Shown here: positions 43,395 to 56,626 of the stretch, piece after piece | Layout of the letters: each line of letters starts with the position of its first letter | How positions within the stretch are numbered: position 1 is the stretch's first letter | Program-made: the position numbers and the translations under genes | Notes under the pieces: generated by a model | The model's input: the letters and a program-made list of their open reading frames with translations, nothing else | Databases searched by the model: none | Told to the model about the DNA's origin: nothing | NCBI RefSeq assembly: GCF_003790525.1 | Contig: NZ_CP033635.1 | Reading direction: 5' to 3' (one strand) | DNA: 64,000 bases | DNA from: Escherichia coli | GTDB lineage: Bacteria; Pseudomonadota; Gammaproteobacteria; Enterobacterales; Enterobacteriaceae

Positions 43395-43746
43395 GGTTCA
43401 CCTCCAGTTCAGGTTTACGCGCTTTACGAGTACCTGATTTGATCAACACAATCCCGGCGACCAGGGTGGTTAACCCGGCAATTTTCATCAGCGATAAACT
43501 TTCGTCGAATAACAAAACGCTAAACAAGGTAATAAATAAAATACCGATACCTTCCCACAGCGCATAAGCCACGCCTAAGGCGATCTTTTTAACGGCGAAA
43601 GAGAGAAATATATACGACAGAGAAATCATCACCAGCATTAAAATAAAGCCGCCATTTCCCTCACTGACGCTCGCCCATTTCATAGACAGCGTACCGGTAA
43701 TTTCTGTAGCAATAGCCAGACCTAATAAAATCCAATAAATATACAT
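43381..43746 (-). CDS. mdtJ: SMR-family spermidine exporter subunit MdtJ
   Basis: 121 aa 4-TM SMR protein overlapping mdtI. Confidence 0.88.
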
Positions 43747-44157
43747 TGTCCTTCTCCTGCAAGAGAATTATTTTAATTTTCGCTTAATTCAGCGAAACCA
43801 AAGTAAAGTGGTCAAGCCCCGCGCATAGCGCAAGCTTAAGCAGGAGAAAGGACTAAAGCGCGTTGCGCCAGTGCTGCTCACCTACGAGCAAGATAGTGGA
43901 TGAGGTACGAAGATGGGTAAATGTAGAAAATAACGTCCTGAACAAATTGTCCATAATATTACAATTATCCGCAGTGTTGCTTCTCGTCATCGCGGATGAT
44001 AATTGTCCTCGGTAGTTGAACACGCCTGATTTGTATCATAGCTTAAGAATTAACTCAAAATATTTTCACTTCTTTACCTGAGCGGTTTGATTTTCGTTAT
44101 GATGACGGAGCGAAAAAGACATTATTATTAGCAAAGGAAGAAAAAACGGGGACAAGC

Positions 44158-44322
44158 ATGGCAAAGCCGATCATCACGCTCAATGGCCTAAAAATCGTCA
44201 TTATGTTGGGAATGCTGGTCATTATTCTCTGCGGTATCCGTTTTGCCGCCGAGATCATCGTGCCGTTTATTCTCGCATTATTTATTGCTGTTATATATAA
44301 CTTATTTCGCTTAACTAATTGA
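44158..44322 (+). pseudogene. tqsA: tqsA 5' fragment (first ~45 codons, then foreign tail and stop) cut by the inserted element
   Basis: [45 protein letters not shown] then IYNLFRLTN*; the rest of the gene resumes at 55720. Confidence 0.85.
44286..44294 (+). repeat. left copy of 9-bp junction direct repeat TGCTGTTAT (candidate att core/overlap)
   Basis: identical 9-mer at 55720-55728; flanking bases differ on both sides. Confidence 0.6.
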
Positions 44323-44365
44323 TTTAATTAAATAATTTGCACTACAAAAAGTGCCAAAAATCGCA

Positions 44366-44391
44366 AATTAACTACACCATTAACTACACCG
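44366..44391 (+). repeat. left copy of 26-bp direct repeat AATTAACTACACCATTAACTACACCG (tandem 12-mer; candidate integrase arm-type sites)
   Basis: exact copy at 55567-55592; followed in both copies by a related ACAACGTG(G/A)AACAA motif. Confidence 0.6.
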
Positions 44392-45466
44392 TTCGGCGCA
44401 CTGTATGAAACAACGTGGAACAAATAGACACAAGCGGCAGGCTATACCGTTATCATTTTTCAGCTATCCGTCATGAAGCTGGTGGATGATCACGGATAAC
44501 CAGGCATCTACAGCGCCTTAAAAAGCTGAACCCGACAAACATTTCTGCTTATCGGGTCCGATCGCTCTTTCTACTCGTGGCAGATGAGTTTACTAGGAAG
44601 GGGGGAACATTGTATCAGGCTATCCCCTTTCTGTGCTGATTCGGCTGGTGAATGATCTACTTGGGGCACTACACTTTTCGGATAGTGCGGGTATCCGGTT
44701 TTCTGCCTCATCGAATTTTAAGCCTTCTGACGGCCTGTATATCATTTCCTGTGGAGTTGCCGCCCTGATAGCGAATACTGCGGCAGCATGTGATTTACCC
44801 CCCGTTCTGTTGATGTTTGATGTGGCTGGTTGATGTGCTGCCATGTTTTCCGCCAATGGTGGAAAAGCCCACCAGCGCAACGCAGGACGCATAAAACCAT
44901 TGCGATGACTCTGGACGCAAAACCACGTTTAACGATGTTTTGCACTGAACCAGAATACTGTTCGTTTTTGTCTCGATGTCCGTACGTATTACGTCCGCAC
45001 CTAATCCGGCATCATGCCCACCAGCGTAACGCATTTTTTTAATTTCGTGGCTGTGCGTCCACCAGCTACGCCGGAATGGGGTATTCCGTTTCAACGGAAC
45101 AGGTATGACGAACATAATCGCACCTTCTCCCGAAAACGGTGCGACCTGCATCATCGAAATGGTGATTCAGCTACTCGGCGATTTTCACCATTCAGAATCT
45201 GGCGGGTGAGTTATCCAGCTTCCACCAATGGGGGATTCTGGAACAATCAACGGGTTACGCCTTATCAGCAAAAAAGCACATCAACTGTAAAGGAAATCGT
45301 TATGGTTGCTGGTGGGCTGCGTCACCATCATGGTGATGATGCTGTCCAGTCAGCCGGAACGGTTGAACAGGGTGGCTATGGGTCACTCTGTTGTGCGTTA
45401 TTTGCGTGATCCTGGTACGGGGTGACTATCTTTCAGATAGTCGGTTGCCTGGTTACACGAAAAAAT

Positions 45467-45769
45467 TTACTTCCTGCGTTTATCCTGCTTTGTATGCCCG
45501 TGCTGAATGCCCCGCAGTGGATCTTCTTTTTTCAGGTCGATCCCCATGTCCGTTAGTGTTTTTGTGGCGGCGGTTCTTATGGCACAAATCAGGTCTCTTT
45601 CCGGTTCCCGGGTTATGGTTGCCTTCCGGATGCATGCCGTTCGTCGTTCCGTTACATACTGACGCGCTTCATCACTTGCCGCCTGTTTCAGTAACTCACC
45701 CCAGCGATTAGCCGCCCGTCGCCATAAACCTTTCGCTTCCAGTTCTTCCGCTTTGTCATCATGCACCAT
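45467..45769 (-). CDS. ANR-like small regulator, paralog 2 (start at MVHDD.. assumed)
   Basis: MVHDDKAEELEAKGLWRRAANRWGELL... parallels the protein at 49352-49624. Confidence 0.55.
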   Translation of the reverse strand: MVHDDKAEELEAKGLWRRAANRWGELLKQAASDEARQYVTERRTACIRKATITREPERDLICAIRTAATKTLTDMGIDLKKEDPLRGIQHGHTKQDKRRK

Positions 45770-45883
45770 AAGCATAATCCCATTGATACCTGTTAACTCT
45801 GAATGGTTGGTTTCTGTTCTTTTGATAATTTCCCGCATAGCTTATTGTATGACAGTACTGTCCCACAATAAGGAGTTGCACGC

Positions 45884-46174
45884 ATGAGAATGACTAGGCA
45901 CAAAAAACAGATTCTTGAACTCTACAAACCTGAGTATCGCGATTGGGTGCGGGTGGAGGCCGGAGATCCGCCTTTTGATGTTCGTGGTGTGACAGTGCTG
46001 CTCTATGGTTCCGAATATCGGCGATATCACATAGAGGCAACACGAAGGACGCTAAACGCTATGGTTCGTGATAAGTTGCTGGAGCGTGTGAAAGTCCGTG
46101 AGCCACGTTTTGATGTGCGTATTGGTGGCGATGGTGCGCATTGCACGGTAATCCGCTATGGCCTGGTAAGGTAA
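45884..46174 (+). CDS. hypothetical protein (96 aa), divergent from the ANR-like gene
   Basis: ORF with upstream AGGAG-like RBS; no recognisable family. Confidence 0.4.
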   Translation: MRMTRHKKQILELYKPEYRDWVRVEAGDPPFDVRGVTVLLYGSEYRRYHIEATRRTLNAMVRDKLLERVKVREPRFDVRIGGDGAHCTVIRYGLVR

Positions 46175-46276
46175 GCCATCGGGTAAATCAGATGATTAAA
46201 TCACCAGAATGTAAATTTACATTCTGCCAGCCACCAGCTACCCTCCTCAAAATTGAGGACCCTTTTTATCAACTGG

Positions 46277-46558
46277 TTACCGCCGCAACCGTTCCGGCTT
46301 CTTCCACTGATAAGTGTTTTTCGCGCTCTCCTGATACATCGCCACGCGTCGACGGTATGCCAGCAACTCTAGTACTCTGATTCGTATGTCGCGCATATCC
46401 ACGCCGTTAAGCTCAATACCATCACGGCGCATTACATCAGCAACAACACGCACATAATTTTCGGCGGTCACGCTGTCCGGCTGCGTGGCCTGTTCGTCAT
46501 GCTGCTGGCTGATTCCGGTAACGCGGCGGATTAATCCCAGTAGTTCGACTTCTGTCAT
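46277..46558 (-). CDS. hypothetical protein (93 aa) adjacent to cos copy A; start taken at internal Met
   Basis: MTEVELLGLIRRVTGI...; the longer ORF 46277..46756 would read through the cos site and is judged an artefact. Confidence 0.4.
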   Translation of the reverse strand: MTEVELLGLIRRVTGISQQHDEQATQPDSVTAENYVRVVADVMRRDGIELNGVDMRDIRIRVLELLAYRRRVAMYQESAKNTYQWKKPERLRR

Positions 46559-46570
46559 TGTGCCCCCATC

Positions 46571-46648
46571 GCTCTGATAGTCTGGTGTCGTCGGGTCCTT
46601 TCCGGCATGTGGACCCGTTACGGGGCGTCGACCTCGCGCGTTTTCACT
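46571..46648 (+). other. lambda-like cos site copy A (cosQ-cosN-left-arm homology); cosN-like 12-mer GGGCGTCGACCT at 46602-46613
   Basis: GGGTCCTTTCCGG...GTTACG GGGCGTCGACCT CGCGCGTTTTCACTATTTATGAAAATTTTTCGG closely matches the recalled lambda cos junction (lambda cosN GGGCGGCGACCT). Confidence 0.75.
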
Positions 46649-46664
46649 ATTTATGAAAATTTTT

Positions 46665-46775
46665 CGGGATCCATGTCCGGTTTCTCTGCAAGTTAACCAT
46701 ATGAAAAATATAAAAACATGCTTTCCATGAACCGGACATGCGCAAAAAACAGACACTAAAACCGGACATCGAACC
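46665..46775. repeat. three CCGGACAT motifs in alternating orientation next to cos copy A (candidate cosB-like terminase-docking sites)
   Basis: ATGTCCGG near 46671, CCGGACATG near 46729, CCGGACATC near 46763. Confidence 0.45.
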
Positions 46776-46837
46776 AGTTAACCGAAAGTGTGCACAAATC
46801 ACATTCATTGCTGCGAGTGATTAACAAGTTATCGGCT

Positions 46838-47272
46838 TTACTGTTCTGTATCGGCTGATTGCTCCATGCTGGCACGGCGAACGCTTACGGCATGACGCCA
46901 CCCAGCCAGAAAGCCAGCCATTTTATTTCGTGCCTTGCTCACATCTTCCGGTGAATAGCCGTAAATATGCAAACCTTCATCAAATCGATGTTCTGTTTCT
47001 TCACTGGAGTACTCGTCACGCTCAGATGAAAGCAGCCTCGCAAACATAATTTTTTCCAGCGCACTGGTTTCTACGTGATATCCGATGGTCTGAAGATGGC
47101 TTTTACCTGAATACCAAAGCAATGTATGCCCGATGTGATAACCGCCAGACTTTCCGCGATCCGCATTAAGATACGGCATCCCCTGTTTGGTCCATGCGCG
47201 AATAGTGGTTCTGTTAACCTTGAAATGTTCAGCTATTTCCTGCTGACTTACAAAACAAGCTTTATCAATCAT
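46838..47272 (-). CDS. Nu1-like small terminase-type DNA-binding protein (wHTH N-terminus, divergent C-terminus); possibly a packaging-redirection factor
   Basis: VSQQEIAEHFKVNRTTIRAWTKQGMPYL aligns with lambda Nu1 VNKKQLADIFGASIRTIQNWQEQGMPVL; 144 aa versus 181 aa for Nu1. Confidence 0.65.
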   Translation of the reverse strand: MIDKACFVSQQEIAEHFKVNRTTIRAWTKQGMPYLNADRGKSGGYHIGHTLLWYSGKSHLQTIGYHVETSALEKIMFARLLSSERDEYSSEETEHRFDEGLHIYGYSPEDVSKARNKMAGFLAGWRHAVSVRRASMEQSADTEQ

Positions 47273-47334
47273 AATGTTACCTTAACTGCATGGTTAAATA
47301 TCAATCAAGTGGTGGTGGTGTCACCTTCACGGAA

Positions 47335-47405
47335 AAACGTCATAAATAGCGAAAACGTGCGAGGTCGACGCCCCGTAACGGGTCCACATGCCGGAAAGGA
47401 CCCGC
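47335..47405 (-). other. lambda-like cos site copy B, inverted relative to copy A; cosN-like 12-mer (reverse complement) at 47362-47373
   Basis: reverse complement reads GGGTCCTTTCCGGCATGTGGACCCGTTACG GGGCGTCGACCT CGCACGTTTTCGCTATTTATGA; lies about 70 bp upstream of the terS-like start in the lambda cosN-to-Nu1 orientation. Confidence 0.7.
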
Positions 47406-47428
47406 AAAAAAAGCCGGATTTCTCCGGC
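47406..47428 (-). terminator. intrinsic terminator after the capsid/decoration genes
   Basis: minus strand GCCGGAGAAATCCGGC followed by U7. Confidence 0.65.
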
Positions 47429-47502
47429 CTTGTCTCAGATGGTTTTCAGTATGCGATAGATGTCGCCGTCATCGCCCTGGTTTGTGCCATCGTTCCCCCT
47501 GC

Positions 47503-47838
47503 TTATCGGGCCAGCGGCTGAACGGATACGCCGGAACCCGCAAAGGCGGCGCATTTTTTCGCATCGGTGTCGACGCTCTCAGGCCAGTTAACGGCGGCAA
47601 TATTGAATATCCCCGTCTTGTAACACTGTGCTGATTTCTGCTTTGACGTGTCCACAGGGTACGAGGTCAGATAAACAGCCTTGCCAGATTCCTTACCATC
47701 CCACGCCTTAAACTCGCCATTGTCTGCCAGCATCAGCGGGGTAAATTCCTGAATAACGCCAGCATCAGCGGCAAAATGTACCAGCGTCGTGGATACCTGT
47801 TGGCTGCCTGAAAATAACTCAATGTATGGAGCGTCCAT
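47503..47838 (-). CDS. lambda gpD-like head decoration protein
   Basis: TPLMLADNGEFKAWDG and AFAGSGVSV match lambda gpD TPLMLDTSSRKLVAWDG and AFAGTAISIV; 111 aa. Confidence 0.8.
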   Translation of the reverse strand: MDAPYIELFSGSQQVSTTLVHFAADAGVIQEFTPLMLADNGEFKAWDGKESGKAVYLTSYPVDTSKQKSAQCYKTGIFNIAAVNWPESVDTDAKKCAAFAGSGVSVQPLAR

Positions 47839-47849
47839 AGAATCCCCCG

Positions 47850-48905
47850 TTAAGCAATTTTGACGGTAACAAATTTGCGAATATCTGCCGGTACAGGCTG
47901 CGGTGCGCTGTGCGTCTGCACGTACTCAATCGCCGGATCGCCGTCCTCAATCCAGTTTTTCGGGTAGTACATGTTTTGCGTTGCGCCCGTTCTTACCGCT
48001 TCCTGATCCATAATCGCACCATATGCCACCAGCCCTTTATTGTTGGTGTTACCCAGGACCAGCAAATCAGGCTCAAGGAAATATTTTTCGGTCCCGTCGC
48101 TGTCAGTGTATTTGCCGGAATAGACGATAAGGGCCAGATCACCAAGATAGCCTTTAAAGCTCACCACTTCGCCCAGGTTTTTACAGGCCAGCTCGGCGGC
48201 GGATTCTGATCCACGGGAAAGATCGTACAGTTCACGGAATTTTTTAAAGCTGCGTAATGTGCGCCATACCTCACCGCCCATAATCATGACGTTGGCGGGG
48301 CAACCTGCCTGATCAGCATAAAGCTCGATGTCATAGATTGGGTCGTGCATGTCTTTATCCTGCTGGGACCATTTTTTACCACTGGCCTGCTGTATGATGC
48401 AGTTTTCCGGTATTTTCCAGTCGATTTCATAGCGTTCTATGCCTTCGCCCTCAATGATGTTTTTTCCGGTCGTTACCGCATTCACCGCCAGCCATTCCAC
48501 GCGCGCCTTAATGGCGTTTATCTGGCGGCGCATGTTGCCAGTAATCAGGCGCATACGGCGGTAAGTTGGATCGTTAAGCTGTGCCGGATCTTCTCCATCC
48601 ATGCGCATGATGGTCTTTGTTGGATCGATTTCGTGCTTTGGCTTCATGTAGCCTGGTTTAATCGTGCTGGTTTCGTACCCTTTATCGCGCTGGACCTGAC
48701 TACCCACCATAGGAGAACAGAACGCTGACATCGTAACCTCTTCAATGTCCAGGGTGTCCAGCATGATGTTTTGGGTGTTGAAGGTCGCCACGTTCGGGAA
48801 AAACAGCGTGGTAAACAGCGGACTAAATTTATATTCCGAAATATCCCCGCGATTCAGGTACGCGAAAAGCTGGTTAGTTGTAAGTGCCTTTGCTTTGCCT
48901 GTCAT
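47850..48905 (-). CDS. lambda gpE-like major capsid protein
   Basis: 351 aa; KPGYMKPKHEIDPTKT, DPTYRRMRLITGNMRR and YPKNWIEDGDPA...SAP...FVTVKIA align with lambda gpE along the whole length. Confidence 0.85.
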   Translation of the reverse strand: MTGKAKALTTNQLFAYLNRGDISEYKFSPLFTTLFFPNVATFNTQNIMLDTLDIEEVTMSAFCSPMVGSQVQRDKGYETSTIKPGYMKPKHEIDPTKTIMRMDGEDPAQLNDPTYRRMRLITGNMRRQINAIKARVEWLAVNAVTTGKNIIEGEGIERYEIDWKIPENCIIQQASGKKWSQQDKDMHDPIYDIELYADQAGCPANVMIMGGEVWRTLRSFKKFRELYDLSRGSESAAELACKNLGEVVSFKGYLGDLALIVYSGKYTDSDGTEKYFLEPDLLVLGNTNNKGLVAYGAIMDQEAVRTGATQNMYYPKNWIEDGDPAIEYVQTHSAPQPVPADIRKFVTVKIA

Positions 48906-49111
48906 TATTCACCTCCGTGAACCTGATTGATACCCAGCGCCGCACGCAAATAGGTGCGCACCTGCCAGCCTGTTGACGGCTCAACCATCGCCAGCGGATC
49001 AAGTCCTGCCGCAATGCCTGCTTTTACATTCTGCTGGTGGCGTTCCTTGAGCGCCTCCACGATGTCGGGGCTTATGTAGACCGTCACCCCGCCTTTTTTC
49101 TCTTCTGCCAT
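48905..49111 (-). CDS. hypothetical 68-aa protein translationally coupled (TAATG) to the capsid gene
   Basis: stop overlaps the gpE-like ATG; first gene of the capsid operon. Confidence 0.5.
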   Translation of the reverse strand: MAEEKKGGVTVYISPDIVEALKERHQQNVKAGIAAGLDPLAMVEPSTGWQVRTYLRAALGINQVHGGE

Positions 49112-49145
49112 AGTCAGAAATTCCTCTTTGACTTAAAAAATCATA

Positions 49146-49163
49146 ACTGGATGTTCATCCAGT
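49146..49163. promoter_or_regulatory. perfect palindrome ACTGGATG-TT-CATCCAGT upstream of the capsid operon (candidate operator/activator site)
   Basis: 8-bp arms with 2-bp spacer, about 35 bp upstream of the first operon ATG (49111). Confidence 0.4.
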
Positions 49164-49322
49164 CCTGATTATAATCATGATTGCATTTTGCGCAACAATA
49201 TTGAGTTACGTTGCAAATTATGAAATGATTATCCCGATCATGTGTGTCAGTTCACCATAAAAAACCTCGTATACAAAAGCCCCATAAGCCCCCTGTGACC
49301 TTATCGGGCTTTTTTTAGGCGT

Positions 49323-49344
49323 AAAAAAGCCGGATTGCTCCGGC
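49323..49344 (-). terminator. intrinsic terminator after the ANR-like gene (same stem family as 47406-47428)
   Basis: minus strand GCCGGAGCAATCCGGC followed by U6. Confidence 0.6.
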
Positions 49345-49351
49345 TGTGTGC

Positions 49352-49624
49352 TCACTTCTGCGGGTAGTTGCGCCATATTGCTTTGCCAATACCAGCTATC
49401 CCCATTTGTTTTTCAGTGCGATTAACTGACCTTTTCAGAGCGCCTAAATCATCCGGCGGCTCCGGTGGCCTCTGTGCCTTACGGATACATTCCGCGCGAC
49501 GCATTGCCACCTGTTCGCGCTCCTTGTCTGTCTCCACCAGCCTCATAACTTCACCCCATCGCGCCGCCGCCCTCCGGTAAAAGCCTTTTGCCTCGAGTTC
49601 CTCCGCTATGCGGTCATGTACCAT
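49352..49624 (-). CDS. ANR-like small regulator, paralog 1 (start at MVHDR.. assumed)
   Basis: MVHDRIAEELEAKGFYRRAAARWGEVM...; longer ORF start would overlap ssb. Confidence 0.55.
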   Translation of the reverse strand: MVHDRIAEELEAKGFYRRAAARWGEVMRLVETDKEREQVAMRRAECIRKAQRPPEPPDDLGALKRSVNRTEKQMGIAGIGKAIWRNYPQK

Positions 49625-49634
49625 CGTCACCCCC

Positions 49635-50045
49635 TCAGAACGGAATATCATCACCGTAAGGGTCATCGCCTCCCGCTGGTGGCTGATTACCCTGTGTGCC
49701 TGTGGTTTTGCGTCTGTTCCCGCCAGGACGTGCCGCACGGGCACTGATTACGCTGTCTGCAATAACCTGCCAGCCCTGCCGCGTTTCCCCGTTCTGTCCG
49801 GTCCACTGGCTGACCTGCATCGTGCCGGATACGCTGGCAACGTCGCCTTTTTGATGTTTAGCCAGAAAGTCGGCCTGTTTGCCAAATGCGATGACCGATA
49901 ACCATAACGTCGCCTGTCCGTCCTGTGCCTGGCCGCATGGTAAAGATACCGCCATACGCGCCAGCGTCATCGGTGTACCCTTACTGGTCTGTTTTACCTG
50001 CGGGTCGTCCACCAGCCGCCCGTAAGCTGCTATCTGTGCTGTCAT
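49635..50045 (-). CDS. single-stranded DNA-binding protein (SSB-like OB fold with acidic DDIPF tail)
   Basis: 136 aa; C-terminal ...DPYGDDIPF typical of SSB; Gly/Pro-rich linker. Confidence 0.75.
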   Translation of the reverse strand: MTAQIAAYGRLVDDPQVKQTSKGTPMTLARMAVSLPCGQAQDGQATLWLSVIAFGKQADFLAKHQKGDVASVSGTMQVSQWTGQNGETRQGWQVIADSVISARAARPGGNRRKTTGTQGNQPPAGGDDPYGDDIPF

Positions 50046-50284
50046 GCTGTCTGCTCTCCGGTTTTAACGTTGATGGTTGTTACCTGTTCTGCTTCGGCAA
50101 TATCCCGCTCTGTCAGCGTGGCAAAGTTTGCCGCCGTCGTTGTCATGAATGCGCTTATCAGTTCGGGATGTGCTTTCGCGTATCCTTCCCCTGTGTTGCG
50201 GTCGATGATTTTTATCGCCACCCTCAGCCAGTGCTCTGTAAGGTCAATGGCGCGGTGATCTGTCTTTTTGTGGCTTACCTTCAT
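50042..50284 (-). CDS. hypothetical protein (80 aa)
   Basis: ORF overlapping the ssb start (coupled); no recognisable family. Confidence 0.45.
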   Translation of the reverse strand: MKVSHKKTDHRAIDLTEHWLRVAIKIIDRNTGEGYAKAHPELISAFMTTTAANFATLTERDIAEAEQVTTINVKTGEQTA

Positions 50285-50287
50285 GAT

Positions 50288-50611
50288 TTACTCCAGAGTA
50301 CCGCTATTGCTGCTGTCGTTAACCGGATACCAGGCAAATACCATCGATTCACCACAGTGAACAAACTTCTTATCCGGCAGATAAAGGCACTCGCACATTC
50401 CCTCATCAGGACTATGCGGACTCATGCCCAGCTCACTGGTCAGCACGGGTAAGATTTCGCGGCAGGTGTTCCCCGCACCGAAATAATCAACCTCACAAAG
50501 CGCCCATGCAGCAATCGGGCTGTACCATTCCGTGCCGTCGTCGTCTTTGAACTTAGCCCACCAGCCAGGAAGGGCAGTTGATATGCTCAGTGTTTCAATT
50601 TCAGTGTTCAT
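50288..50611 (-). CDS. hypothetical protein (about 107 aa; start uncertain)
   Basis: ORF 50288..50656 with internal Met; Cys-rich, no recognisable family. Confidence 0.45.
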   Translation of the reverse strand: MNTEIETLSISTALPGWWAKFKDDDGTEWYSPIAAWALCEVDYFGAGNTCREILPVLTSELGMSPHSPDEGMCECLYLPDKKFVHCGESMVFAWYPVNDSSNSGTLE

Positions 50612-50659
50612 AAATTTACCTTCGGTATTTTGTCCTGCTGTTCGATTTTTATTCATTGC

Positions 50660-50870
50660 TCACCATCTCTCACTTTTACTACTCACTTTTTAAAGCGTCT
50701 CGCTTCGTCTCACTTGAGATTTTTGTGTTTTGTATGTGCATGTTTCATAAGTGTTTTTTCACTGCTCACTTTTGAGCATGTATACAGGTGAGAAAGTGAG
50801 TAATTGTGTTAATATTTTGTAAAAACCTCACCATTACTCACTTTTACTACTCACTTTTTACAGTGGTCCT
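50660..50870. repeat. iteron array (CTCACTT heptamers, two 24-bp direct repeats) - candidate replication origin of the element
   Basis: at least 6 direct and 2 inverted CTCACTT copies between 50669 and 50856; CTCACTTTTACTACTCACTTTTTA at 50669 and 50839; directly 3' of the primase-helicase gene. Confidence 0.6.
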
Positions 50871-52264
50871 ACATCATCACCATCAATGTAAATCACGGCG
50901 TCTTTTTCCAGTTTGGCTAACCATCGCCGCATATTTTTCACGTCATACCCAAGCCGTTTCATGTCATCACGTAACAGCGGGATCGTGCACTTGTCGCCGT
51001 TCTGTGTGCGTGAACGGATGCACCCCCATAGCGCGGTATGGTTTTCCGTCTTGTTGCCTGCCTCCTCGATGCGCTCCAGTTCAGCAGGGGCGCGGGGAAC
51101 GTCAATCACCACCATGGACACAATTTCTTCGCCATCTGTATCGGTGAACACCTCCACGCTTTTAAGGTCGTATGCACTCTCTTTTGGCTCCTCTGCGTCC
51201 TTCATCTTCGTACACGCCGCAACCAGTGCTGTAACGTCTGAATTTTCCCTGCTGATTCGGTACTCTGCATCAAGCGCGGCACGGAATGCACTGGAACCAC
51301 GCGCCCCCTTTGTTTCATCCTTGCCGGAATGGTGAACCACCAGCACCGTGGCCCCTGTGGCCTGCTTTATCGCGTCACACCCCTGGATAAATGCGCCCAT
51401 ATCACGGGAATCATTTTCATCATTCCCACCAAAGCAACGGGCCAGCGTGTCGATCACAATCAGCCGCACATTTTCGCCCGTTCTGCTCTTAACAAGTCCG
51501 GCAGTCCTGATAACCTGCTCCACATAGTCAGGCGATGCAGGGAAAACAGGCGCGTTAATGATGCACAAATCTGTAACCACCTTGTCGTGGGTTATCTCCC
51601 ACGCCTTAACGCGGCGTTTTACGCCCATGCTGCCTTCACCAGCGATATAGATAACCGCACCCTTACTTACCCTGCGGCCTCCCCATGCCATACCTGTGGC
51701 AACATGGCACGACCAGGAAATGGCGAGGAACGATTTATAAGAACCGCTGGCCCCGTAGGTGCTGCATAATGACTCAGCCGGAATAAGCCCCTTAATGACG
51801 TAGCTTTGCTGCGCATCGAATCCCTCAGAACCCCATGAGATGGGAAGTGTGATTTTTCGCTTTCCGCCATTCATGACCAGGCTTTCCCCTCTCTCCCATG
51901 TTTCCCGTAGTCGTGGTAGCTGGTCGCTCCAGTCCTCCAGCAGTTCGAAATTTTCAGAAAGTAGCCGCGCCTCCTGGACTCCGGCGATCGCCAGTTTTGT
52001 GGCAATGGTCAGCATCTGCATATCGTCCAGGTTTCCGGCGCGTATGACCTTTACCCTGTATCGTCCTTCATCAACAATCTGTAAGTTGTCCAGTTCGCTT
52101 AACTGATAACGGCCCAGATAAACCGGAGGGATGGGATCGCCTGCTTTTTTGGCCTGTGCAATCATGTAATGTTCTGCAAAGGAGTGAGCATTATCACCCG
52201 CAAAAATAACCGCCTCAGTGTGTTTATCTTTCGGTAACAGTTTTACGTTCGGTGCAAGTTTCAT
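50858..52264 (-). CDS. replication initiator: primase-associated N-domain + RecA-like/AAA helicase (pri-rep type)
   Basis: 468 aa; Walker A GASGSYKS, Walker B LIVIDTL, VLVVHHSGKD; C-terminal wH-like tail. Confidence 0.8.
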   Translation of the reverse strand: MKLAPNVKLLPKDKHTEAVIFAGDNAHSFAEHYMIAQAKKAGDPIPPVYLGRYQLSELDNLQIVDEGRYRVKVIRAGNLDDMQMLTIATKLAIAGVQEARLLSENFELLEDWSDQLPRLRETWERGESLVMNGGKRKITLPISWGSEGFDAQQSYVIKGLIPAESLCSTYGASGSYKSFLAISWSCHVATGMAWGGRRVSKGAVIYIAGEGSMGVKRRVKAWEITHDKVVTDLCIINAPVFPASPDYVEQVIRTAGLVKSRTGENVRLIVIDTLARCFGGNDENDSRDMGAFIQGCDAIKQATGATVLVVHHSGKDETKGARGSSAFRAALDAEYRISRENSDVTALVAACTKMKDAEEPKESAYDLKSVEVFTDTDGEEIVSMVVIDVPRAPAELERIEEAGNKTENHTALWGCIRSRTQNGDKCTIPLLRDDMKRLGYDVKNMRRWLAKLEKDAVIYIDGDDVGPL

Positions 52265-52548
52265 TTCTTACCCCCTGCGACCAGCATTTCACGGATTTTG
52301 CGGATATAACTTGCAGCACGTTTCTGATTAACGGCTTTACGATGGCCCACCAGCGTGAAATCACGCCGGAACTGATAAACAGGCATAACGCAGTCATATT
52401 CGTAGCCTTCACGGCGGTAAGTGATGCGACGTTCCTCCACGCCCTTAATCATTACCGTGCCGCCGTAGTTATCACGGAAAATATCGCCGGGACGGATTTC
52501 AGGACGAGCGGGGCCGCTGGCATTAACGCCAGAATTTTTATTTTTCAT
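52261..52548 (-). CDS. hypothetical protein (95 aa) translationally coupled to the replication gene
   Basis: stop overlaps the downstream start; basic protein. Confidence 0.45.
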   Translation of the reverse strand: MKNKNSGVNASGPARPEIRPGDIFRDNYGGTVMIKGVEERRITYRREGYEYDCVMPVYQFRRDFTLVGHRKAVNQKRAASYIRKIREMLVAGGKK

Positions 52549-52553
52549 GTTTT

Positions 52554-52781
52554 TTATTCTCCGGTGTGCTGTTCTTTATATCTGTCGTGAATTGCCATCA
52601 CTGTATTTAATTCATTAATAACAGCCGTTAATAGCGTACGCACGGCAGAAAACATCATTGAATCAGATTCATCGCCACTTTCCTGCACATCAATTAAATT
52701 AAGTAGTAATGCGTCCATTTCCTTTGCGCGGATTAATGCCTTTTCACAATGAAAAATAACACCAAAGGGTATTTTATTCAT
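52554..52781 (-). CDS. hypothetical protein (about 75 aa)
   Basis: ORF with internal Met start; first gene after the divergent operator region. Confidence 0.4.
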   Translation of the reverse strand: MNKIPFGVIFHCEKALIRAKEMDALLLNLIDVQESGDESDSMMFSAVRTLLTAVINELNTVMAIHDRYKEQHTGE

Positions 52782-53056
52782 GACTCCCCTCCTGACGGAT
52801 ACGGGCGGCGAATACAGCGACACAACCGGACGGGCAACGGTTACGCGCTTCGCGTTCCGTCCAGGCGGTCACGTGGATAATTTGAGATTCTCCGGCACTC
52901 AGTGCCAGAAAACGCCACACAAAGGCGGTTTGTGTGTGCGCTAGTCGTGGGGTATGCTGTGTTCCAGCCATAATCGTTACTCCTGTTAACGGTTTGGTTA
53001 GACGCCCTGCATGTGTTACAGCACTGCGGGGCGTTGTCTTTTTAACGGCTTTCGTG

Positions 53057-53104
53057 ATAGGGTGTACACCTATCAAGCAAAAACATAACGCTATAGGTGT
53101 ACAC
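53057..53104. promoter_or_regulatory. two TAGG(G)TGTACAC palindromic operator-like sites immediately upstream of the RHH gene
   Basis: ATAGGGTGTACACCTAT at 53057-53073 and ATAGGTGTACAC at 53093-53104, ending at the ATG. Confidence 0.6.
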
Positions 53105-53299
53105 ATGTCAACAGTTATTAAGCGAGATAAAAAACCAAAGGGAACAGGAAAAGCCCCCCCATTCCATATGCGAATAGCTCCAGAACTGAAAGAGCAGTTT
53201 GATAATGAGGCCAGCAATGATGGGGTAAGCCTAGCCAACTGGCTTAAAGAGTTGGGGCGCGCCGAACTAAAGCGACGCGGCATTGAACCTAAAGGCTGA
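53105..53299 (+). CDS. ribbon-helix-helix (CopG/Arc-like) DNA-binding protein, 64 aa
   Basis: beta-strand/helix pattern PFHMRIAPELKEQF...SLANWLKELGRAEL typical of RHH regulators/antitoxins. Confidence 0.6.
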   Translation: MSTVIKRDKKPKGTGKAPPFHMRIAPELKEQFDNEASNDGVSLANWLKELGRAELKRRGIEPKG

Positions 53300-53302
53300 T
53301 GT

Positions 53303-53428
53303 ATGACTGAAAAGCAGACCGATAACAAACTTTCTCTACCAGAGAATAAACCAGCAGGCTTCTTACCAAGAAAAATCCTTGATGAGATCAAACGCCGCCA
53401 GCGCCGCAAGGCCAAAGAGCAGGAATAG
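53303..53428 (+). CDS. small basic ORF (41 aa) immediately downstream of the RHH gene
   Basis: ATG 4 nt after the RHH stop; product MTEKQTDNKLSLPENKPAGFLPRKILDEIKRRQRRKAKEQE. Confidence 0.3.
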   Translation: MTEKQTDNKLSLPENKPAGFLPRKILDEIKRRQRRKAKEQE

Positions 53429-53752
53429 CCCACCAGCAAGCCAGCACACTGATCACATTGGCCACCGTGACAGGTGGCCTTTTCTTTGCCCGTTATCCGG
53501 CAATTGTGGCGCTTCGCCACACGGTTGATATAATTCCCCTGCTCAGATTCATTTTTTGCGCGGCAGGTAAATTGTTCAGAAAGGCGGCTCCTTATCGGGG
53601 CCGCTTTTTTTATGTCTGAAAAACCGCGATTTTGTTGTTTTTCAGTTTCACCAGGCCGAACGAAGCCCCGCCCATGTTCGGGCGTATATCCAGTCTTCAT
53701 GGTTAAATCTCTGTATTAGTGGATGGGTGGCGGCTGTGTGCCGCCAGTCTTT

Positions 53753-53941
53753 TTAGTGAACTGCCTCGCAGCTTTCCTTCCATGCCAGAACTTCGGATAA
53801 AGACCAGCCAACGGAACGACCGCCCAGCTTACGCCGTGATGGGAATTGTCCGGCCTTTTCCAGGCGGTAGCGGCATGAGCGGCTAAGGCCTGTTAGCTTT
53901 TCGCATTCTTTTTCACGTATAAAGCGATCAGTGCTTAACAC
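53753..53941 (-). CDS. alpA: AlpA/Vis-family phage regulatory protein (excisionase-like)
   Basis: 62 aa; ...IREKECEKLTGLSRSCRYRLEKAGQFPSRRKLGGRSVGW... typical AlpA fold signature. Confidence 0.8.
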   Translation of the reverse strand: MLSTDRFIREKECEKLTGLSRSCRYRLEKAGQFPSRRKLGGRSVGWSLSEVLAWKESCEAVH

Positions 53942-54315
53942 TATTGCCCCCTTTCGTTTCTTAAAGAGTTATTTCGTGTTCTATTGCGTTGGGATGTGTC
54001 TGATTGTGTCAGGGTGATTCAGAGTTGGCAAATGTTGGTGGCGGGTATTTTACAGAAACGGGGTGATTTTAATAAAAATCATTTTAATTCAGTATTATGC
54101 AAAGGCATAAAATCTCGTTTTATGCCTTTTTTCTCACTATTTAAAGCGTTATTCGCTAATGTATAAAAAACCAGTTGAGCATTAAAAATCAGCAACTTAT
54201 AAATCTGTATACTTTTTGACCTCTTGTTCGTGGTTGTTTCACGTTGTTGTGTATTGTTGCACGTTGTATCTGTGCACTTATCCAGTATGCGCATACTGAA
54301 AAAACACGAAAAAAA

Positions 54316-55566
54316 TTATTTTCTTCTGGCTACTGGTAGCGTGGTTACGTTTTCATGTGCTCCCGCCAGTATCTCCAACCGCTCCACCCACATATCCAGC
54401 GCATTGCGTTTCGCATCCAGATAACGGGAATGATTATAAACTCGCTGCATTCCTGGCATCTGGTGGCCTGTAAGCTGCTCCACGACGTGAGGATCCACGC
54501 CTAAATCGTTCAGCATCGTTGTAAAGGTGCGCCGGATGTCATGCAGTGACCATTGAGGGTGTTTTAGCCTCCTGTGCGCTAATCTGCCGTACTGCGATAC
54601 GCTGGCCTCCTGTTTCACTTCCCCCAGTAATAAGCCCGTGTGCCTGTTCTGCTCCACCAGCCGCGTGACGAACGGCAGGATCGCTTCCGGTATGGGCCGG
54701 AATATTGCGACCTTCGTTTTGCTGTGCTCCTTCGGAACGGTCCAGAGCATTTCCGTGAAATCCCACTCCCCGATCTCCGATAACCTCAGTTCTACCGTCC
54801 TGGCTCCGAAGACAATCAGGAGGCGGATTAGTGCGACGTAGTAAGGGGAAAATATTTTTTTGTCCAGTGCCTGCAATAATTCGCCCAGTTCTTTGGTGCT
54901 TAAGACACGTTCGCTTATATCCGGTTTTTTCCCAACGTCCGCCACGTTCAGATCGTCCAGAACGTTGCTGATTGCATAGCGCCGCCTCCGGCAAAACTTA
55001 AGCGCCTGTTTGCACGCCTGTAGCACGAATCCGGCAGTAACAGGCGTTCGCTTTGCCACCCGATCAAAACAGGCCAGCCAGTGCCGTAGCTCGCATTTAT
55101 CCAGCGGCATAGCACCAATGTGCTGTATTACGTGATTATTAAGTCGCCTTTTCAGGGCGATATAATCCACGCGGTTTTCCTTTACGTAAGACTCAAGCCA
55201 GTAGGTGAGCGCATCTCCAACCGTTACAGGCTTTAACGCTTCCTGCATGGTGTAATTCATCTCATGACGTGGATTTTTCCCCTCAGCCAGCCATGCGCGA
55301 CACTGGGCGGCTTTTTCCCTGGCTGATTTCAGGCTCAGATCAGGATAATTTCCCAGCTTAATACGTTCCGGTCGTGTCTCTCTTCCCGTTCCGGCCCTGT
55401 AAGTGAAATACCAGGTTAAAAGGCCGCTGGTTGAATGCCTGACGCTCAGATTTCCACCGTCATTAAGAAAGGCTGTTTTTTGGGCGGGTGTGCCGTTGAT
55501 TTTCCTTAGCTGTGTATCGCTCAGCTTGTTAAGTGCTCTGGTCATAATTTTGAATCCGGTCATCAC
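54316..55566 (-). CDS. int: tyrosine site-specific integrase (P4-type)
   Basis: 416 aa; C-terminal catalytic region with ...HDIRRTF... and ...LTGHQMPGMQRVYNH... (R..H..R..Y). Confidence 0.88.
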   Translation of the reverse strand: MMTGFKIMTRALNKLSDTQLRKINGTPAQKTAFLNDGGNLSVRHSTSGLLTWYFTYRAGTGRETRPERIKLGNYPDLSLKSAREKAAQCRAWLAEGKNPRHEMNYTMQEALKPVTVGDALTYWLESYVKENRVDYIALKRRLNNHVIQHIGAMPLDKCELRHWLACFDRVAKRTPVTAGFVLQACKQALKFCRRRRYAISNVLDDLNVADVGKKPDISERVLSTKELGELLQALDKKIFSPYYVALIRLLIVFGARTVELRLSEIGEWDFTEMLWTVPKEHSKTKVAIFRPIPEAILPFVTRLVEQNRHTGLLLGEVKQEASVSQYGRLAHRRLKHPQWSLHDIRRTFTTMLNDLGVDPHVVEQLTGHQMPGMQRVYNHSRYLDAKRNALDMWVERLEILAGAHENVTTLPVARRK

Positions 55567-55592
55567 AATTAACTACACCATTAACTACACCG
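55567..55592 (+). repeat. right copy of the 26-bp direct repeat AATTAACTACACCATTAACTACACCG
   Basis: exact copy of 44366-44391, directly upstream of the int start codon. Confidence 0.6.
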
Positions 55593-55719
55593 ATCGTTGC
55601 ACAAAGGGCTACAACGTGAAACAAGCTGGAACAAGAAAAATCACAAATTTGTTTATAATCAAAAACATAATGCACAACCTGAAACATTATGAAACGGCAA
55701 AAAACACTAATTGATAAAG

Positions 55720-56626
55720 TGCTGTTATTCTTAACCCGCTGGTGCAACACATGGTCCGCTGGCGAGTGCCGCGTGTACTGGCGGTGTCGATTTTGATGAC
55801 CATCATCGTGATGGCGATGGTGTTGCTGTTAGCTTATCTGGGTTCCGCGCTCAACGAGTTGACGCGGACGTTACCGCAATATCGCAACTCTATTATGACG
55901 CCGCTGCAAGCGATTGAACCGTTGTTGCAACGCGTAGGGATTGATGTCTCAGTTGACCAACTGGCGCATTACATTGATCCGAACGCGGCAATGACGTTGC
56001 TCACCAACTTATTGACGCAGTTATCTAATGCCATGTCATCAATCTTTTTATTGCTGCTGACGGTGCTGTTTATGTTGCTCGAAGTGCCACAATTGCCCGG
56101 AAAATTTCAGCAAATGATGGTGCGTCCGGTTGAAGGGATGGCGGCGATTCAGCGTGCGATTGACAGTGTGTCTCATTATCTGGTGCTGAAAACAGCCATC
56201 AGCATCATCACCGGCCTGGTCGCCTGGGCGATGCTCGCCGCACTCGATGTTCGCTTCGCTTTTGTCTGGGGATTGCTGGCCTTTGCGCTTAATTACATCC
56301 CTAATATTGGTTCAGTTCTCGCGGCAATCCCCCCTATCGCTCAGGTACTGGTGTTTAATGGCTTCTACGAAGCGTTGCTGGTGCTGGCGGGATATCTGCT
56401 AATTAATCTGGTCTTCGGCAATATTCTGGAGCCGCGCATCATGGGACGTGGGCTGGGGCTTTCCACATTGGTGGTATTTTTGTCGTTGATTTTTTGGGGA
56501 TGGTTGTTAGGACCGGTGGGTATGCTGCTTTCCGTGCCGTTAACAATTATTGTCAAAATTGCGCTTGAACAAACAACGGGAGGTCAAAGCATCGCCGTTC
56601 TGTTAAGCGATCTCAACAAAGAGTGA
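55720..56626 (+). pseudogene. tqsA: tqsA 3' fragment (about 300 codons) downstream of the inserted element
   Basis: in-frame continuation ...[26 protein letters not shown]... after a stop codon at 55715. Confidence 0.85.

Follow-up and report, generated by a model that had tools for sequence, protein, structure and literature searches.

Within P4, crr constitutes a cis replication region, and P4 and P2 are reportedly home to hotspots for defence genes, described by Rousset et al. in 2022. Staphylococcus aureus pathogenicity islands (SaPIs) as well as phage-inducible chromosomal islands (PICIs) carry accessory genes at their 3' end, and in the replication origins of PICIs an AT-rich region lies between two sets of iterons (PMC6092414). 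One such island, EcCICFT073, contains two cos sites (PMC6092414, PMC6739421). For lambdoid phages, richness in Chi sites together with a lack of anti-RecBCD functions is a documented strategy (PMC12315714, PMC8791490), and Chi in these phages displays a strong top-strand bias and is clustered at the right end (PMC12315714). Here we analyse positions 44400-45460 of a stretch of 64,000 nucleotides from the Escherichia coli contig NZ_CP033635.1 (the window), which represents the chromosomal region ydgD-mdtI-mdtJ-tqsA' with an element of ~11.43 kb splitting tqsA. As judged from its sequence, the element is a cos-type PICI of the EcCICFT073 type, and positions 44400-45460 are its integrase-distal arm.

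The arm is gene-free, mosaic and dense in Chi, and its terminators are well formed. We estimate a probability of roughly 60% that this non-coding arm is a boundary and exchange region whose cargo has been lost. It lies downstream of the last gene in the leftward gene set. Comparison with EcCICFT073, taken as the copy from strain CFT073, revealed a common gene order: int, alpA, an icd-like gene, primase/helicase with an iteron origin, ssb, perC, lambda-E/D-like capsid and decoration genes, a 144-aa Rpp-like gene and phrog_1561. Both elements measure about 11 kb, have Chi as their top octamer and carry two inverted lambda-like cosN sites beside the Rpp-like gene, a pairing that was confirmed in the EcCICFT073 sequence. 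In the window, cosN GGGCGTCGACCT occurs at 46623 (plus) and 47362 (minus) on either side of the Nu1/Rpp-like gene (144-aa open reading frame (ORF) 46838-47272, minus strand; phrog_57 terminase small subunit, E=1e-8, and a weak Phage_Nu1 match). It is embedded in a 78-nt inverted repeat (46592-46669 and 47327-47404, 91% complementary) and is one change away from the cosN of lambda and EcCICFT073. In contrast, EcCICFT073 is located next to phoQ, whereas the window element interrupts tqsA, encodes a RepA-family helicase with iterons unlike those of EcCICFT073 and has an additional perC and a 96-aa ORF. Moreover, the arm spans 1.1 kb in the window compared with ~555 bp in EcCICFT073, and only ~50 bp of block C are common to both. 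The features of the arm and its limits are as follows (L numbers denote compared loci).

44286-44294: attL core TGCTGTTAT within tqsA, left boundary of the satellite (direct repeat D13 and sequence reading)
44366-44391, plus strand: putative integrase arm-type sites, ATTAACTACACC twice in tandem, with a second copy at 55567-55592 (function suggested by the repeats)
44406-44437: putative integrase arm-type motif AACAACGTGGAACAA, with copies at 55611-55636 and, inverted, at 54220-54248 (likewise suggested by the repeats)
44462-44501: block A, hairpin TATCCGT/ACGGATA around Chi 44478-44485 (plus), defined by invariant alignment columns, BLAST and the fold of the homologous L015 segment
44502-45006: 505-bp patchwork between blocks A and B, made of at least three modules, each found separately in other satellites
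44518-44559, minus strand: intrinsic terminator with a 14-bp stem (44559-44528) and a U-run, from a terminator scan
44642-44824: L013-like module, 72-81% identical to non-coding DNA just 3' of a hypothetical cargo gene in the yqeG-site PICI L013
44825-44999: phrog_1561 flank fusion, upstream and downstream sequences joined at Chi 44869-44876 (minus) with no gene between, from BLAST and alignment
44957-45010, minus strand: 18-aa relic GLGADVIRTDIETKTNS of an ORF6N/KilA-N-type antirepressor (tblastn, 67% over 18 aa, E=0.002)
45007-45054, plus strand: block B, hairpin 45009-45032 with Chi 45018-45025 (minus), followed by T7 at 45034-45040; terminator-like on the plus strand
45047-45345: block C, non-coding, between inverted Chi sites at 45059-45066 (minus) and 45308-45315 (plus)
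45346-45466: block D, 3' flank of perC, with palindrome GACTATCT-TTC-AGATAGTC at 45424-45442, from alignment
45467-45769, minus strand: PerC-family regulator (Pfam PerC, E=7.6e-23, and RefSeq), first credible gene and right limit of the stretch
55720-55728: attR core within tqsA, copy of TGCTGTTAT (direct repeat)
L015 560-930, also L002-L007, L019 and L026-L043: origin-like arm module of relatives, which the window lacks

An earlier note on this DNA had seen no convincing ORF in 44400-45460, and our analysis bears this out: its coordinates are right, the ORFs are at chance level and no family is matched. The gap it described between the att repeats and the first credible gene is real, although its initial ~100 bp are part of the att arm. 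Only short, overlapping ORFs are present on both strands, the three longest encoding 131, 119 and 90 aa. When the sequence was shuffled 500 times with its dinucleotides preserved, the longest ORF had a mean of 104 +/- 27 aa and reached at least 131 aa in 15% of cases; the ORF lengths of the arm fall within this range and are therefore no more than expected by chance. The codon-usage log-odds are ~0 for most arm ORFs, compared with 0.19-0.23 for small satellite genes and 0.45 for chromosomal genes, and neither the ORFs nor the six-frame translations of the arm gave a match in Pfam, PHROGs or PADLOC. In related copies the frames are broken by indels of 1-2 nt and by a 137-bp insert, and variable sites in block C distribute over the codon positions as 20/21/25 (p=0.73), that is, without 3-periodicity. 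Gene-free runs this long are uncommon in E. coli, yet at this position one is present in every related element examined (1.1-1.35 kb). Taken together, it is highly probable that 44400-45460 holds no protein-coding gene. A decayed protein domain was also sought: stop-masked six-frame translations produced no Pfam match at E<=5, and tblastn gave only the 18-aa ORF6N relic. The idea that block C is what remains of a rep gene that went with the orphan origin was rejected: three arms were searched by tblastn with four satellite Rep proteins, an SSB-like ORF and a small hypothetical ORF, and no match fell below E=0.25.

The same position was compared in elements at the smrA, yifB, yejO/tRNA-Pro, tRNA-Ile, thiM, yqeG, hpt and clpS sites, to which viral and metagenome collections contributed 24 further contigs. 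The arms of these relatives are mostly unannotated, 1.1-1.35 kb long and modular in content. At the outer end, the att arm is 83-86% identical to that of elements at the smrA and yifB sites, whereas block A is invariant even in satellites with unrelated att arms and different integrases. In relatives, blocks A and B are paired as one ~75-bp unit (block A, a small hairpin, block B). Block C is common to many Rpp-type PICIs and capsid-forming PICIs (cfPICIs), and blocks A, B and C together recur in satellites that differ in integrase, att site and packaging module. Among relatives perC is 99% identical and blocks C and D are 90-96% identical (block D 93-94%). At its left edge, block D carries a 137-bp hairpin insert in relatives and, in some of them, a (CCAG)n run. 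This run comprises ~7-10 units at about 3530-3570 in L003 and about 3940-3970 in L007 and could be prone to slippage; the window has CCAGTCAGCC at 45342-45351.

Of 5,426 complete E. coli genomes, just 3 contain the patchwork between blocks A and B in its full arrangement. Positions 44446-44641 are 96% identical to the att-proximal arm of a thiM-site PICI, and a 70-bp segment within them is ~86% identical to the rlfB/pmgF intergenic region of phage P1; this segment holds the minus-strand terminator, which is a strong one. The terminator module adjoins att in L012. The next module, related to L013, retains a decayed copy of the 9-bp-stem hairpin of that element and contains a weak terminator-like site on the plus strand (44678-44698), and the region of the antirepressor relic also matches phage phi467 by blastn. 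Remains of cargo are likewise visible in the arms of relatives: L012 has BRO-N/Ant pseudogenes, and L010 has a fragment of KilA-N. The patchwork is thus a leftover of cargo, namely flanks and terminators without their genes. These relics substantiate the earlier suggestion of decayed cargo; that of regulatory DNA agrees with the putative integrase arm repeats and the two terminators. Comparison with related elements uncovered no intact conserved gene that is merely frameshifted in this copy: the relics are tiny and the arm is a recombinant patchwork.

How such a slot appears when occupied is illustrated by a yifB-site cfPICI of E. coli TUM9757 (L014), in which an intact gene for a 380-aa Fic protein (L014 2651-3793; PADLOC SoFic, E=6.7e-49) has a copy of the ~75-bp A-B unit on either side. 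To the left, this arm has the integrase-arm repeats of the window, and to the right a module (L014 4001-4132) that corresponds to window positions 44867-44999. Among the loci, blocks A and C are separated by one of five discrete distances: 123, 221-253, ~537, ~655 and, in the window, 648 bp. By these alignments, the position is a satellite accessory slot whose A-B interval varies among satellites. The window copy contains no cargo gene, and its local ORFs lack PADLOC matches. With SoFic at the same position in L014, the proposal that this is an accessory slot whose emptiness is itself informative gains support. Like known satellite defence and accessory slots, the locus is situated at the integrase-distal end and has conserved flanks that enclose an interval of variable content, which in a relative includes SoFic. 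It differs from them in that the window copy is gene-empty and the flanks are short, non-coding, Chi-bearing hairpin units instead of core genes.

The Chi octamer GCTGGTGG is present five times in the 1.06-kb arm, at 44478 (plus), 44869 (minus), 45018 (minus), 45059 (minus) and 45308 (plus), corresponding to 4.7/kb (P=4e-6 at the chromosomal rate and P=0.006 at the rate in the rest of the element). The satellite as a whole (44302-55719) contains 16 Chi in 11.3 kb (1.4/kb; Poisson P=9e-9 at the chromosomal rate), compared with 12 in the remaining 52.7 kb of the window (0.23/kb). Its Chi density is about six times that of the E. coli chromosome, and Chi is its top octamer with 16 copies versus 7 for the runner-up. 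EcCICFT073 has 11 Chi, again as top octamer (L020 15640-27100), the tRNA-Pro-site PICI L015 has 22, and in the majority of the 24 further contigs the density is 0.6-2.2/kb. By our reading of the sequence, the five arm copies are alike only in the octamer and, in some pairs, in 2-3 adjacent nucleotides. A longer protein-binding motif around Chi is unlikely, given how little sequence beyond the octamer is common to them. Around the common CCCACCAGCG, the left side is either GGCATCAYG... or GGTGGAAAAG... and the right side either CAACGCAGGACGCATAAAACC or TRACGC followed by a T-run; three of the four possible combinations occur. In the available alignments, module switch points fall exactly at Chi, and blocks A and B form an inverted Chi pair.

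The resemblance to Chi-rich lambdoid phages of the LLS and Gifsy-1 classes extends to the over-representation of Chi as top octamer, the lack of a recognizable Gam-like gene and the lambda-type cos. No Gam-, Abc2- or recombinase-type family was recognized among the ORFs of the element by annotation and Pfam, several ORFs being without family assignment; an SSB is present. However, the satellite is denser in Chi (1.4/kb) than phage LLS, which has about 25 in its whole genome, and whereas the phages are top-strand biased, the window satellite and its relatives carry Chi in both orientations. This two-way orientation might be related to the two inverted cos sites. The phage study (PMC12315714) covers phages and does not mention satellites, to which the elements described here belong, and the literature searched contained no report of a connection between Chi and PICIs.

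We propose that the minus-strand terminator would end the leftward operon transcript of the satellite, and that the hairpin and T-run of block B would stop read-through from the truncated tqsA; as two convergent terminators they would insulate the satellite from tqsA read-through. Chi in both orientations may attenuate RecBCD on linear or broken satellite DNA. Since the action of RecBCD at Chi creates a 3' end that is recombinogenic, Chi could further serve as a junction for the exchange of modules and cargo between satellites, and the window copy would represent a slot emptied of its cargo. More tentatively, and as a possibility that we do not favour as a whole, these ideas can be combined. 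The ~75-bp A-B unit with its two inverted Chi would be a portable recombination junction at which RecBCD-generated 3' ends prime the gain, swap or loss of Chi-bounded cargo such as SoFic. By enriching Chi in both orientations over the whole element, satellites that lack Gam and have two inverted cos sites would have adapted to withstand RecBCD and to make use of it. Block C, with its nearly invariant core and hypervariable hairpin of three alleles, could be a so far undescribed cis-acting or RNA element that these satellites have in common.

Several observations weigh against interpreting the arm as a boundary and exchange region. Insulation, RecBCD attenuation and Chi-primed exchange are all read from sequence. 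The plus-strand terminator of block B appears weakened in the window copy by one stem pair. The strands of Chi show no consistent polarity with respect to cos, with 4 plus and 12 minus sites here, 6 and 5 in EcCICFT073 and 10 and 12 in L015, and the coincidence of Chi with module junctions could reflect short common repeats in which Chi is a passenger. The codon score of the 119-aa minus-strand ORF (0.18) is close to that of small satellite genes (0.19-0.23). Finally, the model leaves unexplained why block C combines a nearly invariant 51-nt core with an adjacent hypervariable patch of three alleles, an arrangement that hints at a cis-acting or RNA function.

The arm might instead be plain debris of decayed cargo, with genes of the antirepressor type, and of illegitimate recombination, evolving neutrally, with functionless Chi sites and hairpins that were spread by homogenizing recombination among satellites. 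The tiny gene relics here and the pseudogenes and fragment in L012 and L010 are in line with this view, as are the restriction of the full arrangement to three genomes, the short arm of EcCICFT073 (just ~555 bp) and the lower conservation of blocks C and D (90-96%) relative to perC (99%). We nevertheless regard it as unlikely: blocks A, B and C are found again in satellites whose integrases, att sites and packaging modules differ, block C has a nearly invariant core of 51 nt, and the terminators are well formed and strand-specific. In addition, Chi is the top octamer over whole elements, including coding sequence, which argues for selection on Chi itself. The nearly invariant core also bears on a non-coding RNA, either a small RNA or one derived from a 3' untranslated region that ends at the minus-strand terminator (about 44660-44518), or a block C RNA that draws its specificity from a hypervariable hairpin. 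RNA folding of 44500-44660 gave z=-3.35 for the minus strand (three hairpins and the terminator) compared with -0.47 for the plus strand, and block C folds with z about -3. Within block C, the 51 nt at 45089-45139 are nearly invariant in copies that are otherwise 86-96% identical. They are followed by a ~40-nt hypervariable patch (45140-45179) with three allele groups only among 37 loci, and by a conserved 33-nt stretch (45180-45212), so that the flanks of the patch are ultra-conserved. Sequence reading of alleles 1 and 3 identified two compensatory pair changes in the hairpin ATCATC-GAAAT-GGTGAT. Yet block C folds equally on both strands, because it is bracketed by an inverted Chi pair, which points to inverted repeats at the DNA level. 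RNAalifold on 10 block C sequences, run for both strands, returned invariant helices only, with a covariation term of about zero. One scan of viral contigs and one of metagenomes added 24 loci with the same three allele groups, too few alleles for a statistical test of covariation. A consensus scan of 44200-46000 on both strands detected no sigma-70-like promoter (2.8 +/- 1.5 in shuffles); the region includes perC and the divergent 96-aa ORF. A structured RNA had been suggested earlier together with a covariance-model search, and no known family emerged: in 43500-47000 the sole Rfam 15 match at E<=1 was a chance one to a small nucleolar RNA, located outside the stretch, and in 44000-56000 none reached the gathering score. 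C4/IsrK-type and other known RNAs were discarded for want of an Rfam match. An RNA function of the arm is thus improbable in our judgement.

A small protein is very improbable in our judgement, be it the 106/119-aa minus-strand ORF annotated by the Prokaryotic Genome Annotation Pipeline (PGAP) or a micro-ORF with the conserved peptide PFSGEGAIMFVIPVPLK. In the near-identical element of strain PKF11, PGAP calls two hypothetical proteins (44795-45115, minus; 45206-45409, plus). The 119-aa frame has the codon score of 0.18, a 31-aa peptide is conserved in 20 database entries, and we read AAGG 7 nt upstream of an internal ATG. However, in the PGAP counterparts of related elements the common part, including this peptide, is the translation of one conserved DNA block, and both termini differ, following the neighbouring modules. 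In L017 and L018 the frame terminates early, after ...PLK. The 20 matches of the 119-aa ORF, obtained from 5.8 billion proteins, are all hypothetical proteins of 66-160 aa with different termini, in 20 clusters confined to Escherichia; there is no Pfam, PHROGs or PADLOC family, and the substitutions lack codon periodicity. Least of all do we expect a cis-acting replication element, such as a second origin resembling P4 crr, or a cos site in the window arm. This reading draws on relatives, whose arms contain a 366-bp origin-like module, the iteron of which recurs at the rep-side origin of L026 and L030, besides a GACGAGGCGGGCGGTCCC motif. It is largely refuted for the present copy, in which the module is absent, the element has iterons of its own at 50659-50866, and the cosN sites at 46623 and 47362 lie outside the arm. 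A cos in the arm was rejected since the lambda cosN pattern is found only at these two positions.

In most relatives the 366-bp module is located between blocks B and C and is made up of a leader TTTTTCGTATATATATACAAAACA, GCGGGTTAT iterons in three direct and three inverted copies, and a centre rich in AT. It is built like the origin next to rep of the same element, with the same TTTTTCGTATATATATACAAAACA leader. The iterons of the L015 origin are GTTGTCCC and hence unlike GCGGGTTAT of its arm module, whereas L026 and L030 have the GCGGGTTAT iteron also at the origin next to rep. Judging by these matches, some lineages probably have in the arm module a second region to which Rep binds, and in others (L015-type) the module is an orphan. 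We noticed a P2-cos-like motif, GACGAGGCGGGCGGTCCC, just ahead of the arm module in relatives. The module, its iterons and the P2-like motif are precisely absent from the window arm. Iterons of the window element (CTCACTTTT type) occur at 50659-50866 (42% GC) next to the RepA helicase gene and not in the arm; this region is the likely satellite origin. Its units CTCACCAT..CTCACTTTTACTACTCACTTTTT are situated directly downstream of the RepA-family helicase gene. The arms of relatives thus resemble P4 crr and PICI origins in having a second iteron and AT-rich module several kb from the rep-side origin; the window differs in lacking the module, and the L015 type in that the iteron mismatches its own origin.

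Regarding the remainder of the element, the region is 99.9% identical in strains PKF11, PKF4 and CM2, and RefSeq annotates in the PKF11 copy an integrase, AlpA, an Icd-like protein, a RepA-family helicase, SSB, two PerC-family regulators, a major capsid protein and a head decoration protein; the annotation of the 11.4-kb element includes neither tail nor lysis genes. The tyrosine integrase is encoded at the right end (ORF 54316-55566, according to the RefSeq annotation of the PKF11 element), the AlpA-family regulator at 53753-53941 on the minus strand (Pfam Phage_AlpA, E=5e-18) and the RepA-family helicase at 50858-52264, also on the minus strand. Compared with the PKF11 element (L001), which is otherwise near-identical, the integrase and alpA ORFs are displaced by some 84-105 bp (window about 52800-54300), and a 308-aa open frame (52774-53700, minus strand) extends across the Icd-like region, which points to a regulatory region that differs from PKF11 by an indel. 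The interrupted gene tqsA, which codes for the autoinducer 2 (AI-2) transporter, is split at codon ~46 into pieces at 44158-44322 and about 55729-56540, its N-terminal piece reading into satellite DNA up to a stop at 44322. TqsA should therefore be lacking in this strain, and tqsA is annotated as split in PKF11 as well.

In itself the stretch is of an ordinary kind, the accessory slot of a known family of satellites, empty and recombined in this copy, and its Chi-bounded architecture is the noteworthy part. The interval between two short, non-coding, Chi-bearing blocks next to attL is the point of cargo entry into these satellites and offers a simple landmark for mining PICIs and cfPICIs for defence genes. 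If Chi indeed protects and recombines satellite DNA via RecBCD, the strategy of Chi-rich, Gam-less phages would extend to their parasites, and exchange through Chi and RecBCD would help to explain the mosaicism of satellites.

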